A stretch of 21,177 nt of DNA. It comes from a virus. Taxonomy: Duplodnaviria > Heunggongvirae > Uroviricota > Caudoviricetes. Below the pieces are notes generated by a model. The model worked only from the letters and a program-made list of their open reading frames with translations, was not told the origin of the DNA and ran no database searches. Numbering within the stretch: position 1 is the stretch's first letter; each line of letters opens with the position of its first letter. The stretch is taken from IMG/VR virus record IMGVR_UViG_2531839102_000019, positions 1 to 21,177 of that record; one strand, given 5' to 3'. Made by a program: the position numbers and the translations under genes. Positions 4,381-20,406 of the stretch are shown one piece after another.

Positions 4381-5115
4381 ATGAAGAGTATAGCAACACT
4401 GGTTGTGTGTGCAATCTCCGGGATTGCCTGTGTAAATTTATCTGCACATGCAGCAGAAGGAGAGCATACAATTTCTCTGGGGTATGCGCACTTTCAGTTT
4501 CCGGGACTGAAGGATTTTGTAAAGGATGCGACTGCTCATAACAGGGAGACTTTCAGTCATTTCGTCAACAGAAACTACTTTTCTTCATTGGGCGAATATA
4601 CAGATGGTCGGGTCAGTGGATATGAAGGCAAGGATAAAAATCCACAGGGCATTAATATCAGGTATCGCTACGAGATAACGGATGATTTTGGCGTTATCAC
4701 CTCTTTTACATGGACGCGTTCTCTCACTAACTCACAGACATTTATTGATGTGCAGTCAGCCGATCATACCAGGAAGATTAAGAATCCGGCAGCTTCTGCC
4801 AGAACGGATATCAGGGCGAATTACTGGAGTCTGTTAGCGGGGCCTTCATGGCGGGTTAATCAGTACATGAGTTTATATGCGATGGCAGGGATGGGCGTTG
4901 CTAAAGTTAGCGCTGACCTGAAAATTAAGGACAATATTAACAGTAGTGGCGGATTTTCTGAAAGCAACAGCACGAAAAAAACCTCCCTTGCGTGGGCTGC
5001 AGGTGCACAGTTTAACCTGAATGAGAGTGTTACACTGGATGTGGCTTACGAAGGTTCCGGCTCTGGCGACTGGCGCACGAGTGGCGTTACTGCTGGCATT
5101 GGCCTGAAATTCTGA
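4381..5115 (+). CDS. lom: Lom/Ail/PagC/OmpX-family outer-membrane beta-barrel protein
   Basis: N-terminal signal peptide (MKSIATLVVCAISGIACVNLSAHA); C-terminus LAWAAGAQFNLNESVTLDVAYEGSGSGDWRTSGVTAGIGLKF closely resembles the lambda Lom C-terminus as I recall it; lies downstream of tail genes as in lambda. Confidence 0.85.
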   Translation: MKSIATLVVCAISGIACVNLSAHAAEGEHTISLGYAHFQFPGLKDFVKDATAHNRETFSHFVNRNYFSSLGEYTDGRVSGYEGKDKNPQGINIRYRYEITDDFGVITSFTWTRSLTNSQTFIDVQSADHTRKIKNPAASARTDIRANYWSLLAGPSWRVNQYMSLYAMAGMGVAKVSADLKIKDNINSSGGFSESNSTKKTSLAWAAGAQFNLNESVTLDVAYEGSGSGDWRTSGVTAGIGLKF

Positions 5116-5139
5116 CCTGTATCCGGTAACCGTTTACTA

Positions 5140-5162
5140 CCCGCTGTGATGGCGGGTTTTTT
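5140..5162 (+). terminator. Rho-independent terminator after lom
   Basis: CCCGC-TGTGATG-GCGGG hairpin (extendable by an A:T pair) followed by TTTTTT. Confidence 0.7.
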
Positions 5163-5347
5163 ATTGCCCGTACAGGGCAAAAACCGTAAATTATGCGTGG
5201 GTGCCTTTCGGCTGATGGCTGGAGGGTGAACCTGAAGGCCTGATGTGGAAAGGCCCCGAGTCAACTTAACGTTAACCCGAGGCCCTAACACTTCGTACCT
5301 TAAGCAAGTAGAAGGTTAGCGCCTCTCTGTAAAAGGAGTCAAGCGCT

Positions 5348-5488
5348 ATGTCGCAAAAATCGCTTATCACCGTCACAATTTGCATGACGGTTATCTTCAC
5401 CATCTGGATGTTGCACGGTTCACTGTGTGAGTTCCGGCTGAATTTGTGGGGAGCGGAGTTTGCGGCGTTCTTACAGTGTAAGCAGTAG
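5348..5488 (+). CDS. Hok/Gef-family type I toxin-like small membrane protein (46 aa)
   Basis: AAGGAG 12 nt upstream of ATG; translation MSQKSLITVTICMTVIFTIWMLHGSLCEFRLNLWGAEFAAFLQCKQ has an N-terminal transmembrane helix and the SLCE-R...G-E-AAF pattern I associate with Hok/Gef. Confidence 0.55.
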   Translation: MSQKSLITVTICMTVIFTIWMLHGSLCEFRLNLWGAEFAAFLQCKQ

Positions 5489-5497
5489 GAAAACCGC

Positions 5498-5519
5498 GAC
5501 GGGGACGAGAGTCCCCGTC
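5498..5519 (+). other. Perfect 9-bp stem-loop with GAGA loop in the 3' UTR of the Hok-like ORF
   Basis: GACGGGGAC-GAGA-GTCCCCGTC; no following U-tract, so more likely an mRNA folding/stability element than a terminator. Confidence 0.4.
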
Positions 5520-5568
5520 AACTGGTTGCTGAGGTTCAGCCGATATGGCACCCGTTTCAGGTGAGAGA

Positions 5569-5946
5569 ATGAACGATAAAATTCTCTGGTATATGCAGCG
5601 TGTTGTGAGAAATTCCCGCAACCCTGAATTTATGAATGAAGTTAAAGACGCCTGCCTTAAAAAGCAGGCGTTTTGTTTTGAGGCACCTGATGGCTTTTTG
5701 GTGCTGCGTTCTGTGCTCAGTGCTGATGGTATCCCTTATGTTCTGGTGTTGCTGGGCGTGTGTACGGGGAGTAACAGCGTTGAGCGTTACCTGCCGGAGG
5801 TGAAGACATTAACCCATCTGGCTGGCGGACGCTGGGCTGAGTTCCATACGGCAAGGCGGGGATTTATCCGGCTGGGAAAACGACTGGGCTTTGAGCGAAT
5901 GCCGGATGATGAGGATGGCTTCATGGTGTTCAGGATAGCGGTCTGA
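5569..5946 (+). CDS. Hypothetical protein (125 aa)
   Basis: ATG preceded by GGTGAGAG; ORF ends just before the terminator at 6000; no motif recognised. Confidence 0.55.
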   Translation: MNDKILWYMQRVVRNSRNPEFMNEVKDACLKKQAFCFEAPDGFLVLRSVLSADGIPYVLVLLGVCTGSNSVERYLPEVKTLTHLAGGRWAEFHTARRGFIRLGKRLGFERMPDDEDGFMVFRIAV

Positions 5947-7413: not shown

Positions 7414-8676
7414 ATGAGCGGATTTGCACAGGGGTTACTTGCAGGATTCAGCACCGTTGACCAGGCAATGACCCGTCGTAAGGAGCTTGGTTTGCGAGAA
7501 GCACAGCTTGCTCAGCAACAGAAAAATAACGAGCGCGATTTTGAATTTGCGCAGTCTCAGTTTGAACATAATAAAGACGTTGATCAGCGGAACTTTGATT
7601 ACAGAGCCAAAGTTGATGACCGCAATTACGCACTGCAGGAAAGGGAGTTTAACGCCAATCAGAATTACCGGAATGCGTCACTGGGTATGGAGCAGCAGCG
7701 ACTCCAGTTGCAGAAATACAACCAGCGACGGCTTGAGTATAACGATATGCTGGCGCGCGATCAGCCTGTGATGGCTGCGCTTGGAAAGGCTGTGGATGCT
7801 GGTGATCGGGATGCGGCAATGCATCTTTACGGGCAGTTGTCAGAGGGTAATCCGCTGAGGCTGATGGCGAATGATGGCTATGCTGCGAAAGCGGGGCAGG
7901 CCGTGAACAACCTGCAAAAAATCTTTGATGACAAGCCGGACAGGGCGATCGCTTCACTCAATACCCCGGAAAGTCTTGATGCGCTTTCCGGCGTGTTTGC
8001 CCCGGAACTGCAACAGCGTATTGGCATGCCCGATTCAACCGGGAAAAAGACAATAAAAGAGGCCAGGATTGGCAGTATCGTACCGGCACAGCAGGAAGGG
8101 TACGTACTTATCGGCCTTGATCTCACATACAGCGATGGCTCCACCGCACATAAACCTGTAACAGAATACGGCAGTGCGCACCCTGATGATCAAACCGTGC
8201 TGGCGATACCCGTTGATAAGGCTATCGCTCAGGTCAGGGATCGCAGCAAATTTGCAGAGATATCGAAAAATTATGGTTATTTTATGCCGAAGCAGCAGGG
8301 ACTTTCTCTGAAAGAGCTTCAGAAGGAAGCCAGCAAAGTAGTGGCTCAGGCGATCAAGGATGGCCGTGATGCTCAGTCTGCGAAGGATGAGTTTTTTGCA
8401 GCGCATGATTCACAGCCGCATCAACAGAAAATTCAGCAACAGAAAACCCAACAGCTTTTACAGAAGTGGCAGACGTGGGCGGCGGGCGATCCGGTTAAAC
8501 AGGAGTTTGTAAAAGAGGCTGCCGCCAATGCGCCTGCTTTGCTGGAACCTGGTCGTGAAAAGGAGGTGGAAATTTATTACCAGAATCACCTCCGGGATAA
8601 AAAGGCAGAGCATGAAAAGGCGCTGGATTATAGCGCTTCCGCATCTGCCGATAAGATCAGAAGCTGGATAAAGTAA
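7414..8676 (+). CDS. Operon gene 4: Gln-rich coiled-coil-like protein (420 aa)
   Basis: GGAG ribosome-binding site then ATG 10 nt after the upstream stop; Q-rich tracts (HQQKIQQQKTQQLLQKWQTW); no enzymatic motif recognised. Confidence 0.75.
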   Translation: MSGFAQGLLAGFSTVDQAMTRRKELGLREAQLAQQQKNNERDFEFAQSQFEHNKDVDQRNFDYRAKVDDRNYALQEREFNANQNYRNASLGMEQQRLQLQKYNQRRLEYNDMLARDQPVMAALGKAVDAGDRDAAMHLYGQLSEGNPLRLMANDGYAAKAGQAVNNLQKIFDDKPDRAIASLNTPESLDALSGVFAPELQQRIGMPDSTGKKTIKEARIGSIVPAQQEGYVLIGLDLTYSDGSTAHKPVTEYGSAHPDDQTVLAIPVDKAIAQVRDRSKFAEISKNYGYFMPKQQGLSLKELQKEASKVVAQAIKDGRDAQSAKDEFFAAHDSQPHQQKIQQQKTQQLLQKWQTWAAGDPVKQEFVKEAAANAPALLEPGREKEVEIYYQNHLRDKKAEHEKALDYSASASADKIRSWIK

Positions 8677-8721
8677 AAGTATGCGGCAGTAACGCGCTCC
8701 CCGTTAATATCGTTCACTTAC

Positions 8722-17266: not shown

Positions 17267-17608
17267 TTAATGAAGAAAAGTTGCGCAAATGGCAGCGTAT
17301 TTGCTGAAAAAGCATGGCGGATCTATGCGTTTCATTAAGCTGAAGCAGCAACGGTAATTGCCGTGCCAATCATCAGCCCAACTGGTTAACCCTGGCGCAT
17401 CAATGCTAGGCATATAGACGCTTGCAGTGTGGTAGCCCTTATCGTTATCAATGCTGGCAACGTGCTCGCCGTTGTATGCGCTCAGCGTGTCTAGGACACT
17501 ATAAAACTTTCCTCCGGCTGCCCTGAAATCCTTTACAGCCTTCACAAGACGATTCCACGCTTTTTCCTGTTCTGGCGTCAGGTCGATTAATTCCTGCAAA
17601 GTTGCCAT
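17267..17608 (-). CDS. Hypothetical phage accessory protein (113 aa)
   Basis: ATG at 17608 with AAGGAA ribosome-binding site, 1 nt after the stop of the upstream gene; the longer 17698 start lacks a ribosome-binding site and would overlap that gene. Confidence 0.6.
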   Translation of the reverse strand: MATLQELIDLTPEQEKAWNRLVKAVKDFRAAGGKFYSVLDTLSAYNGEHVASIDNDKGYHTASVYMPSIDAPGLTSWADDWHGNYRCCFSLMKRIDPPCFFSKYAAICATFLH

Positions 17609-17609
17609 T

Positions 17610-17828
17610 TCAGTTTTCCTTATATGGGTTAATTTTATTGTGCAGTGTGTTGAACGACGCCCATACCACGTCGTTATACAACTCAATAACTGGTTCAATT
17701 ATTTTCCCGATAAACCAGACCAGTAATAGCGGGGATATTGGTATCATCAACACGATAAACAGAATGAGAAACAAAAATTCTGTCGCTCTACTTTTTCGCG
17801 GATATTTTTTTCTAAATAATGTGACCAT
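17610..17828 (-). CDS. Small predicted membrane protein (72 aa)
   Basis: Hydrophobic core FLFLILFIVLMIPISPLLLVWFIG; directly abuts the downstream gene. Confidence 0.45.
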   Translation of the reverse strand: MVTLFRKKYPRKSRATEFLFLILFIVLMIPISPLLLVWFIGKIIEPVIELYNDVVWASFNTLHNKINPYKEN

Positions 17829-17915
17829 TCATTACCGCCCTTTCGGGCGGCCTCCCGATGTTCTGAGGGTGCAGAAATCCCTCCGGTTAAGGATTAAATT
17901 AATAATATGATGTAA

Positions 17916-18104
17916 TTAATTCATGTAGTGCGAACCATACTCCCAATGATGGCTAATTATTTCGGCAGCATCTCCATAACATAAATTATCCGGTTTCATA
18001 TCTTTGTCTTGCCCGAATTTACTTTCAACAAAATCATCAATATCCTGATGCGGGGCATTGGCAGGGACTGAAATTACAGTTGTCACTATTATTGTTCGAT
18101 TCAC
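17916..18104 (-). CDS. Small hypothetical protein (about 62 aa, GTG start)
   Basis: AGGAGG 8 nt upstream of GTG at 18104, embedded in the end of the Ea22-like gene; weak support. Confidence 0.4.
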   Translation of the reverse strand: MNRTIIVTTVISVPANAPHQDIDDFVESKFGQDKDMKPDNLCYGDAAEIISHHWEYGSHYMN

Positions 18105-18108
18105 TTTC

Positions 18109-18945
18109 TCACCCTCCTTTGATGCGAATGCCAGCAACACGTAGTGCATGTTCTAAGTCAGCCAGATAAAGCCAGCAGCCATTTTCTTTAGGTATCATGA
18201 CGTGGCGCTCATCATCATTTATCGGATGTCCATATCGAAGGCCGTAGCGAGTCGGCAAATGAACTTCCCGCGTTTCCAGCTCTTTAACGCGTTCCTCCAG
18301 TTCGTAGACCCTGCATTGTTCTCTATCATCAATCAGATATAACCCAAGACATTCGCTTTCTACCCAACCGCCAAAATCATGATCGTAACGCTCACATGAA
18401 AACTCACCGTCACCGTCCTTTGTTGGAATGGTGTAACTATCTAATGGGCCACCATATGTCGGCACATTTCCCAATGTTGGATGCTCAATCCACATGAAAA
18501 ATGTACGTCCGGTTATTGGGCAAATATCTGGCCGCCATTGGTTACGAACAGCCTTGGTTTCGGATAATTCTTCAGCGTGTTGTTTTACTTCCTCAAGCTC
18601 AACACGCAGCTTCCTAACCGTAAGAGCAATTTCCTCGTTCACCTGGTCGCGGCTTTTGATGTATTGCTGGTTTCTTTCCCGTTCATCCAGCAGTGCCAGC
18701 ACGGTAGCCGGATTGGCTGCGGCGATGAATTCAGCATTGGCCTGCTGTTCCATTTGGAAATCTTCATCGAAACCGCTTTCAGGATGTGCTCCTTCAATTC
18801 TGCAAATGGGAATATATCCAGCAGCCTCGCGATGAATTAGTGCATCATCACCATCAAATCGGTTCTCTCCATATTCGAGCGACCACTCACCACGCGTTGC
18901 TTTTTCTGCCTTTTCACGCAGTACCTGATAGTTAATCTCGCTCAT
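18109..18945 (-). CDS. Ead/Ea22-like phage protein
   Basis: N-terminus MSEINYQVLREKAEKATRGEW and internal LLDERERNQQYIKSRDQ match the lambda Ea22 family signature as I recall it; GGAG ribosome-binding site upstream of ATG at 18945. Confidence 0.85.
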   Translation of the reverse strand: MSEINYQVLREKAEKATRGEWSLEYGENRFDGDDALIHREAAGYIPICRIEGAHPESGFDEDFQMEQQANAEFIAAANPATVLALLDERERNQQYIKSRDQVNEEIALTVRKLRVELEEVKQHAEELSETKAVRNQWRPDICPITGRTFFMWIEHPTLGNVPTYGGPLDSYTIPTKDGDGEFSCERYDHDFGGWVESECLGLYLIDDREQCRVYELEERVKELETREVHLPTRYGLRYGHPINDDERHVMIPKENGCWLYLADLEHALRVAGIRIKGG

Positions 18946-19216
18946 TTTTCTCTTCGCTCCGGTATACAAGAATTACAACGTCACCTCTGCTAATTACGCG
19001 AGCTGGATCTCCTGGCTCCATGCTGTCAATCCCGAAGGCTTCGGAAAACGCATTCATTGCCTTCTGGCGTTGATCCTGCTTACGGCATTTATTCCATTTT
19101 TTCAGTAACAACAGCGATAGCCACCGCCCGGCGCAGAACATAATGTAAAAATAACCAAGAAGCGCCAGACCTGTGTTGAGGGTCGTATCGATCGTTATAG
19201 TGGTGTCTATGCTCAC
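18932..19216 (-). CDS. Small hypothetical membrane protein (94 aa)
   Basis: Transmembrane segment LALLGYFYIMFCAGRWLSLLLL; start overlaps the upstream stop by 4 nt and its end overlaps the Ea22-like start. Confidence 0.6.
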   Translation of the reverse strand: MSIDTTITIDTTLNTGLALLGYFYIMFCAGRWLSLLLLKKWNKCRKQDQRQKAMNAFSEAFGIDSMEPGDPARVISRGDVVILVYRSEEKNERD

Positions 19217-19434
19217 TTCACACCTCTCTGTTTGTTGATAAGTTCAATATCCTGCTGGCAACTGGCGCAAGTTCGGCATCCGCGAACAGCCTGGCGTCGC
19301 CGCTCATCTATCGGATCGCCACACTCGCAACAATGAGTAGCAGATGGGGCATTACTATCGGATTTGTATTTTTGCAGGGAGAGATTGCGCTGCAATTCTT
19401 CGATTTCAGCGGCGTTGTCGATGATATCTGCCAT
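19213..19434 (-). CDS. TraR/DksA-family C4 zinc-finger protein
   Basis: CxxC...CxxC in CECGDPIDERRRQAVRGCRTCASCQ; 73 aa; this family is common in lambdoid early operons. Confidence 0.8.
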   Translation of the reverse strand: MADIIDNAAEIEELQRNLSLQKYKSDSNAPSATHCCECGDPIDERRRQAVRGCRTCASCQQDIELINKQRGVK

Positions 19435-19454
19435 TTTCCTTTCCTTCAGGCATG

Positions 19455-19477
19455 AAAAAAGGAGCCGAAGCTCCTTT
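19455..19477 (-). terminator. Intrinsic terminator on the minus strand between the antirepressor-like and TraR-like genes
   Basis: On the minus strand: GGAGC-UUCG-GCUCC hairpin flanked by A3/U3 extension and followed by a U-run; about 20 nt upstream of the TraR-like start. Confidence 0.5.
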
Positions 19478-19481
19478 GGTT

Positions 19482-20111
19482 TCAGAATTCAAATTGTCTT
19501 GCTCTTAGTTGCGCCAGCATACTTCTGGCCCTATGCACCATATAGTTGGCGGGATCAAGTTTTGCTGCTTCGCGGAGCAATGTGTCGCGAGTCCGGTTGG
19601 TTATATGACGAGTTTCGTAGGTCAGATCAAACAGCTTTCCATAGTAATCAGAGTTCAGTTCTCTCATGACGGGGTATAGCTGTTTACTGAGTTGTTGTGC
19701 TTTTTCCATCCAGAGCTGCATGTAGCAAAGGAGGATGATTTCCTCGTCTGTGAATTGTTGCTGTGGTTCTGCTTGTGCCGACTGCATGTTGCGAAGTTTC
19801 TTTTCGCACTCGATGAAGTATCTGCGTATCTGTCGGCCTTTTTCGTTACGCTCTACCATCGCCGTTTCTTTGGCTGTATCGAGGGTAAGGTGGTAGTCTT
19901 TTTTCCCTCGCCCATAACCTATTTCCCGTTTCTGGGAAATAGCTATATAGTCCTGATTTTCAACGAATCCGTACTCTTCAATACGTTCTGTAATCCACGA
20001 TGCAAAGCGTTTACCTACTCCAAGAAAAGTATGTAAATCACGGGCATTAACGAGAAGAGTGGTTTCGTTGGCGATAGTGCCGTTGAATACGGGGATGAGT
20101 TGACTGGTCAT
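19482..20111 (-). CDS. Phage antirepressor-like protein (AntA/AntB-type N-terminal domain)
   Basis: N-terminus LIPVFNGT...VNARDLHTFLGVGKRFASWITERIEEYGFVENQDY fits the AntA-type pattern; AAGGAGG ribosome-binding site upstream of ATG at 20111. Confidence 0.7.
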   Translation of the reverse strand: MTSQLIPVFNGTIANETTLLVNARDLHTFLGVGKRFASWITERIEEYGFVENQDYIAISQKREIGYGRGKKDYHLTLDTAKETAMVERNEKGRQIRRYFIECEKKLRNMQSAQAEPQQQFTDEEIILLCYMQLWMEKAQQLSKQLYPVMRELNSDYYGKLFDLTYETRHITNRTRDTLLREAAKLDPANYMVHRARSMLAQLRARQFEF

Positions 20112-20139: not shown

Positions 20140-20162
20140 ACCGCCAGTTAGTAGCTGGCGGT
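20140..20162. promoter_or_regulatory. Perfect 8-bp inverted repeat in the antirepressor leader (candidate operator or leader hairpin)
   Basis: ACCGCCAG-TTAGTAG-CTGGCGGT, 29 nt upstream of the antirepressor start on the minus strand; a TTGACA hexamer lies just upstream on that strand. Confidence 0.35.
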
Positions 20163-20406
20163 CGGGTGTCAACTGAGCCAAATAAGAAGCTCTGGGCATA
20201 TTCCCCTTGCGGGTGTTGTATTACGCCTCTCCACCCGACCTTTGTACGGATGTAACTATGCCAAATTGCAGGCATAAAAAAGCCGCAAAGCTATCGGGTG
20301 CGGAGACCGCTTATTTGTTCAGTGCGGTCAGTATGCGATAGCTCTGGAGGATTTGTCAATCAGCGGAATATTGATGAACGGGTAACGGTAAATGCCTCAT
20401 CCAGAA

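Follow-up and report, generated by a model that had tools for sequence, protein, structure and literature searches.

The stretch of DNA analysed here (21,177 nt, hereafter the window) belongs to a short-tailed Stx-converting phage, of which it is a late/accessory segment. It is ~97% identical to phage 933W over its whole length, save for positions 8447-8701 and 17358-19627, and its coordinates up to ~8400 match the numbering of locus L002 (933W from 40313). The region of interest, 5100-5600, is 100% identical in 933W, VT2-Sakai (Sp5) and dozens more Stx phages. It takes in the end of lom (4381-5115; Ail/Lom by Pfam) and the intrinsic terminator of this gene (5139-5163, +; an 8-pair stem at 5139-5157 plus a T run), which abuts the predicted promoter of a small toxin gene, hok (5348-5488, +). 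The strand is that of lom and of the downstream structural genes. In Stx-phage records the ORF at 5348-5488 is mostly labeled 'hypothetical protein' or left unannotated, nothing is annotated at this position in the original 933W record, and a literature search for a hok cassette beside lom in 933W found none.

The hok gene opens with ATG 5348, nine bases downstream of a Shine-Dalgarno sequence identified by reading the DNA (GGAG, 5335-5338, +), which pairs with CUCU 5324-5327 in the single-sequence minimum free energy (MFE) fold. It encodes a 46-aa peptide, MSQKSLITVTICMTVIFTIWMLHGSLCEFRLNLWGAEFAAFLQCKQ. A first-pass annotation of the bare sequence had reported a 46-codon ORF with a ribosome-binding site and a Hok/Gef pattern behind a hydrophobic N-terminal segment, all of which were confirmed: residues 6-22 are hydrophobic, LCE lies at 26-28 and AAF at 39-41, and an alignment of 18 sequences, K-12 HokA and 933W HokW among them, shows no variation at C27, E28, A39 or F41. 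The profile search that it had proposed as a check matched residues 8-44 of 46 to Pfam HOK_GEF (PF01848) at 33.2 bits (E 4e-8), above the curated cut-off of 22 bits. This score, the small size, the N-terminal hydrophobic helix and the Cys-Glu and Ala..Phe positions make the peptide a member of Hok/Gef, and RefSeq names it 'Hok/Gef family protein'. In a large protein search, 56 relatives came up in Escherichia, Shigella and Salmonella, most of them 46 aa long, and the source names attached to them are all Hok/Gef. The ORF encodes a Hok/Gef protein under purifying selection: its pooled pN/pS is ~0.24 across relatives, and all 7 differences between the window and the copy in one Stx-phage relative (L054) are synonymous.

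The same peptide has been listed before. A survey of Hok proteins (Escalera-Maurer et al., bioRxiv 10.1101/2025.08.07.668861, 2026 v2) includes an identical 46/46-aa sequence as 72_1589, taken from a 'high abundance cluster', cloned as pAZ3-72_1589 (LRP157) and assayed for toxicity on induction. According to the preprint, 42 of the 45 Hok homologs tested were toxic, and 72_1589 is outside the three named as non-toxic. The 46-aa, HokA-like branch to which the window toxin belongs is cluster 72 of this survey.

A hok promoter is predicted at 5164-5192 (+), with the -35 hexamer TTGCCC (5164-5169), a 17-nt spacer and the -10 hexamer TAAATT (5187-5192). The copies of the cassette in P2-like prophages (P2-type copies, see below) repeat these hexamers and their spacing (TTGCCG-N17-TAGATT), and the gap between the -10 and GGGTGC is 6 nt, likewise in hokW (TAGAAT-TGCTGC-GGGTGC) and hokC (TATAAT-AGCGGC-GGGTGC). 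A generic sigma-70 scan of both strands between 5050 and 5750 flagged no promoter under its 9/12 rule; the hok candidate scores 8/12 against the consensus, and it and the Sok candidate described below both fall just under the rule, so hokW, hokC and the P2-type copies served as guides for placing them. The first-pass annotation had likewise expected the gene to have its own promoter.

The predicted hok mRNA body spans 5199-5556 (+), with its 5' end at ~5197-5199 and its 3' end at or beyond 5553. This 358-nt RNA has an MFE of -155.4 kcal/mol (z = -6.5 against shuffles). A consensus fold was computed from 28 distinct relatives: paired cells make up 98.5% (37-44% with slid partners), 8 pairs show changes on both sides, and covariation scores 0.121, compared with ~0.03 in the slid controls; the consensus structure was derived from the very sequences scored, which flatters the comparison with slid partners. 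In these folds the RNA shows the closing helix between 5' and 3' ends, the target stem-loop, the sequestered start codon and the 3' hairpin of the family.

The closing helix appears in both the MFE and the consensus folds. Its tac-like 5' element at 5199-5213 (GGGUGCC 5199-5205 and UCGGCU 5208-5213) pairs with an fbi-like 3' element at 5538-5553, recognized by its complementarity to the 5' end (AGCCGA 5538-5543 and GGCACCC 5547-5553), such that 5199-5205 meets 5547-5553 and 5208-5213 meets 5538-5543. The first of the two helices is intact in 27 of the 28 sequences with no compensatory change, and the second has one-sided changes only, so the pairing is backed by conservation. The Sok-target stem-loop (5279-5325, +) consists of a consensus helix of 5279-5291 with 5314-5325 around the loop 5292-5313; 98% of its cells are paired in the 28 relatives, with one-sided changes only. 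A downstream box at 5452-5468 forms a 15-pair consensus helix with the hok start region (5348-5364), in which 99.5% of cells are paired; 10 of these pairs are constant throughout and the two strands of the helix are both coding sequence, so that what this helix displays is conservation and not covariation.

Behind the stop codon lies a 9-bp stem-loop with a GAGA loop at 5498-5519 (+; GACGGGGAC-GAGA-GTCCCCGTC), present just as the first-pass annotation described it. The clear compensatory changes of the mRNA fold fall in this hairpin, whose two apical pairs change on both sides, in 14/28 and 13/28 sequences, respectively. From its 3' edge to the end of the fbi-like box is 34 nt, in line with the ~35-40 nt expected between a post-stop stem-loop of this family and the mRNA 3' end. 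In the hok mRNA of plasmid R1, 3' trimming stops at the post-stop stem-loop, and by analogy the 5498-5519 hairpin is likely the stop point for trimming here. When the RNA is cut back to 5522, its 5' end is predicted to move onto 5247-5257. The hairpin has no T run on the plus strand and is thus not a plus-strand terminator, and none was found inside the cassette after the fbi-like box. The nearest plus-strand intrinsic terminator (5653-5680) is within the next ORF, ~100 nt past that box. Of the two terminators between which the first-pass annotation placed the gene, the upstream one, that of lom (5139-5157 plus a T run), is real.

Several observations concern the 3' side of the cassette. A two-way canonical intrinsic terminator at 5648-5680 (GCCTGC..GCAGGC, then TTTTGTTTT) is located within ORF 5545-5946 (L0129) and may be where hok transcripts end; in one P2-type copy (L004), an intrinsic terminator lies ~22 nt past the fbi-like box. 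The annotated L0129 start, ATG 5545, overlaps the fbi-like box (5547-5553), and the in-frame ATG 5569, preceded by GGTGAGAG, looks like the better candidate for the start. On the minus strand, the post-stop hairpin reads as a 9-10-bp stem at 5497-5520 followed by CGGTTTTCC, with a terminator-like score, and the same holds in L004 (2840-2817); this stem might keep antisense transcription from reading through into hok.

The sok/hok-leader model of Rfam (RF01794), which is built on the hok-leader strand, matches the locus over its full length at 5199-5361 (+) with 35.6 bits (E 2.6e-6 locally and 7.8e-5 window-wide). This was the covariance-model search suggested at first pass: RF01794 is the only Rfam match near the ORF, but its score is below the gathering threshold of 59 bits. 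The window-wide search gave no second sok-type match. With the same model, hokW scores 113.5 bits, a P2-type copy 45.9 and a Citrobacter copy 53.5, and relatives within the branch range from 38.6 to 53.5. The locus is a divergent branch of the sok/hok-leader family and not a non-member.

Opposite the hok leader, a Sok-like RNA of ~59 nt is predicted at 5248-5306 (-), comprising a ~20-nt single-stranded 5' tail, a 16-bp hairpin (5250-5286) and then UUUCC. Its putative promoter (5313-5342, -) has -35 TTGACT (5342-5337), an 18-nt spacer and -10 TAACCT (5318-5313), the last matching sokW, and would start transcription at ~5306-5305. A 67-nt minus-strand RNA from 5306 to 5240 folds at -32.5 kcal/mol (z -5.25), compared with -17.2 kcal/mol (z -2.15) for the plus strand, whose fold is weaker because minus-strand G-U pairs turn into C-A mismatches. 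The hairpin is kept in 31 relatives, and AGGTTA, the plus-strand complement of TAACCT, in all but one of 28. The Sok 5' tail is complementary to 5287-5306, mostly inside the loop of the 5279-5325 hairpin. The promoter and the minus-strand hairpin are thus predicted to form an antisense gene directed against the hok leader, with a strongly folding hairpin RNA encoded behind a -10 element like that of sokW. The first-pass annotation had anticipated an antisense RNA; a candidate with its own predicted promoter can indeed be placed, but the interval it guessed, 5300-5360, mostly covers the promoter.

The leader of the window copy has no intact mok. A mok was sought in the window as an in-frame extension of hok (mokW/mokC type), as an out-of-frame ORF (R1 type) and as a conserved leader ORF, and none was found: no reading frame starts in the Sok target, overlaps hok and could couple the two translations. 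The hok frame upstream of ATG 5348 is closed by TAA 5330-5332 and TAG 5309-5311, and no ATG, GTG or TTG occurs near the Sok 5' end, where mokW starts. A GTG ORF at 5245-5319 (24 codons, ending at the conserved TAG) was considered as a coupling ORF and rejected, as its frame is not kept in relatives. What is present is an 8-codon ORF starting with ATG (5243-5269, +; MWKGPEST) behind an SD-like GAAGG (5235-5239), probably a mok remnant. The lack of an intact mok accounts for the failure of the first-pass annotation to place an overlapping leader ORF.

Among 28 aligned relatives, ATG 5243 is present in 26; the length of its ORF ranges from 8 to 79 codons, and it overlaps hok in four (61-79 codons): one of these copies is from Escherichia albertii and the other three are from Stx-phage relatives. 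A different ATG opens a 70-codon ORF in four P2-type copies. In total, a long (61-79 codons) ATG-started leader ORF that overlaps hok is found in 8/28 relatives, from two different ATGs, and is absent in 20/28. The switch between states is small: one extra T in the Sok-hairpin loop of three relatives (L044, L039 and L058, compared with the window at 5260-5275), with small nearby changes, turns the 8-codon ORF into a 61-codon ORF overlapping hok. What the branch conserves is the toxin ORF, both predicted promoters, the closing boxes and the Sok hairpin, with the leader frame being switched by single-base indels. The Hok peptide is unchanged while the mok-like frame toggles among close relatives, and mok therefore looks dispensable in the HokA-like branch. 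The missing mok is the sole unusual aspect of the locus.

The extent of the cassette was revealed by copies in a second setting. At the end of P2-like prophages, directly after ogr, ~82% identical copies occur, whose homology to the window runs from ~5179 to exactly 5553, with the -35 hexamer (5164-5169) aligning as well; homology ends at the fbi-like box. Stx phages carry the cassette behind lom and P2-like prophages behind ogr, and its boundaries are the same in these two unrelated settings. The matching extent indicates that the unit is a portable cassette of ~390 bp, from ~5164 (the -35 hexamer) to 5553-5556, longer than the interval 5166-5519 flagged at first pass. The P2-type copies are at 2501-2930 of L004 and 2501-2880 of L005, and their prophages lie beside tRNA genes in one genome and serS in another. 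Some similarity to 5100-5600 is detected in 1675 of 5426 complete E. coli genomes, and a match covering at least 80% of this region, which takes in the lom-side flank, in 417 of them. Contigs assigned to Xanthomonas pisi, a Planococcaceae MAG, Vagococcus sp. and Moraxella osloensis (L006, L007, L009 and L014) also bear enterobacterial hok loci, with hok peptide identities of 45-100%; the 100% case, L006, is a contig of 857 bp. These contigs are most likely contaminated assemblies. Elsewhere in the window, the Rfam family sRNA-Xcc1 (RF02221) has a full-length match at 20152-20240 (-) with 69.1 bits (gathering threshold 53), just upstream of an AntA/P22 antirepressor-like ORF at 19482-20111 (-), and the same match is found in 933W.

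Taken together, ~5164-5556 is very probably a self-contained type I toxin-antitoxin cassette of the hok/sok family, an accessory 'moron' that a 933W/Sp5-like Stx phage has just downstream of lom. If it works as R1 and hokW do, the lysogen would constitutively produce both the hok and the Sok RNA. Pairing of 5199-5213 with 5538-5553 and of the AUG with 5452-5468 would lock the long-lived hok mRNA. Slow 3' trimming to the 5498-5519 hairpin, as in R1, would then let the 5' end refold onto 5247-5257. As long as the short-lived Sok-like RNA (5306 to 5248) is supplied, its 5' tail would pair with the loop of the 5279-5325 hairpin, and the Sok/hok duplex would be cleaved or translation blocked. Once Sok synthesis stops, through prophage loss, host shut-off or induction, Hok would be translated, insert into the inner membrane and depolarise it. 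We infer promoter activity, RNA ends, half-lives and RNase III/Hfq involvement by analogy with these relatives. With no intact mok, Sok would have to act via mRNA decay, via the 8-codon leader or through structure alone; the leader ATG 5243 is 3 nt from the edge of the Sok duplex. By the same analogy, the biological role could be prophage retention, phage exclusion or, as for hokW, earlier lysis. As a tentative extension, which we think may well turn out otherwise, the cluster 72 branch would be a hok/sok variant that works without mok, with Sok acting by cleavage, structure or the 8-codon leader, and would serve as the sole hok module in phages lacking hokW. If so, the cassette alone could play a hokW-like part in lysis timing or exclusion in those phages.

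Several chromosomal hok loci of E. coli K-12 are inactivated, and the cassette could likewise be a regulatory relic, passive and inert, in which the toxin ORF is intact but Hok is no longer made from its own mRNA after the loss of mok coupling. The leader argues for this, in that the conserved ATG 5243 opens only 8 codons in the window while L044, L039 and L058 keep the 61-codon ORF overlapping hok, and most copies have no long leader ORF; K-12 mokA is also annotated as a pseudogene, next to IS150. The toxin and its RNA elements point the other way. Hok is unchanged in Stx-phage relatives at the level of the peptide (the comparison with L054 and the pN/pS given above), and both prophage contexts preserve the promoter hexamers, the 5'-3' boxes and the Sok hairpin, which is unexpected for a dead cassette. 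Moreover, even apparently selected copies differ in their mok frames, suggesting that mok is dispensable rather than that the locus is dead. We consider a relic improbable. That the ORF and the nearby hairpin are a functionless chance association, as might be imagined in a region with many 20-50-codon ORFs, is refuted for practical purposes by the HOK_GEF score above cut-off, the hundreds of conserved copies, the codon-level selection, the RNA z of -6.5 and the published testing of the identical peptide (bioRxiv 10.1101/2025.08.07.668861).

A different question is whether the cassette is an addiction module at all. It may instead be an accessory of lysis or exclusion, with Hok made at induction by read-through of the late operon, so as to hasten lysis or abort superinfecting phages, and the antisense RNA only silencing leaky expression in the lysogen. 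The co-orientation of the cassette with lom and the downstream structural genes is consistent with this, and the sister locus hokW-sokW does speed growth arrest by ~40 min and double Sp5 release (PMC8621323). The result for hokW may not transfer to the lom-side cassette, however, and the sequence does not separate such a role from the standard mechanism, with which it is compatible. We regard the lysis accessory as possible, though on the unlikely side, and retain the toxin-antitoxin cassette as the best explanation.

The locus is already known in kind and in peptide, and is a member of a textbook family. Minor additions here are the map of RNA elements at coordinate level, the distinction from hokW-sokW and the finding that mok has not been kept. 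How Sok acts in the HokA-like branch when no intact mok is present is a small, testable question.

Plasmid R1 hok/sok (parB) was compared by description only. The window locus resembles it in the stable folded mRNA, the 5'-3' pairing, the unstable antisense RNA directed at the leader and the small membrane toxin, all as predicted here. In R1, Sok blocks translation of mok, which overlaps hok and is translationally coupled to it; the window copy differs in having no intact mok to couple.

The closest named Hok is that of K-12 hokA, which is accompanied by a mokA pseudogene. The window peptide is 46% identical to K-12 HokA and shares the ...SLCE...AAFL.CK tail with it, and the 3' end of the hokA locus also has GCACCC. 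The two differ in length (50 aa in HokA and 46 aa here), and hokA DNA is too dissimilar for blastn. The 5' side of K-12 hokA is interrupted by IS150, and its promoter and tac region are thus not comparable. For the cluster 72 protein, the survey covers coding sequences only, with Sok, Mok and mRNA ends explicitly set aside; the cloned 72_1589 DNA differs from the window by synonymous changes, and the available text does not discuss a lom-adjacent phage context (bioRxiv 10.1101/2025.08.07.668861).

Within the same phage group, the nearest system is hokW-mokW-sokW of phage 933W and Sakai prophage 5 (Takada et al. 2021, PMC8621323; annotated in AF125520), a member of the same family, which after mitomycin C brings growth arrest forward by ~40 min and increases Sp5 release twofold. 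The hokW mRNA also starts with GGGTGC, ends with GCACCC and has a similar post-stop hairpin. The sokW promoter (TTGCCT-N17-TAACCT, then 6 nt to the annotated start) has the same -10 hexamer and the same 6-nt distance as the predicted Sok promoter, and primer YO-421, used for the sokW promoter-less mutant (PMC8621323), alters exactly the TAACCT hexamer region relative to the native sequence. Both antisense RNAs have a 5' tail and a long hairpin, with sokW being 71 nt long and the RNA predicted here ~59 nt. The two loci also differ. HokW has 51 aa (MKQQKAM...) and is 33% identical to the window peptide; mokW extends hokW in frame at its N-terminus, whereas the same frame is shut by two stops in the window; and RF01794 scores 113.5 bits on hokW but 35.6 on the window.

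Identity of the window locus with the published hokW-sokW was rejected, since neither the primers of PMC8621323 nor the HokW sequence matches the window. In 933W, hokW-mokW-sokW is located at 58460-58734 on the opposite strand, ~13 kb away from the lom-side cassette. The hok/sok locus on Stx2 prophages that the first-pass annotation mentioned is hokW-sokW (PMC8621323), a different locus, which is absent from the window. The 933W segment that carries it (L002 17352-19542) is replaced in the window, at 17358-18596, by unrelated sequence, which contains ORFs without a Pfam match and then an Ead/Ea22-like ORF at 18109-18969 (-). Within the 21 kb examined, the window phage has only the lom-side cassette, whereas 933W and Sp5 carry two. 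The annotation of 933W-type phages should be corrected accordingly, the second cassette being HokA-like and beside lom. This bears on the reading of the hokW-sokW deletion experiments in Sp5: VT2-Sakai is 100% identical to the window over 5100-5600, Sp5 thus keeps its lom-side cassette, and Hok toxins may contribute more to phage release than the reported twofold effect suggests.
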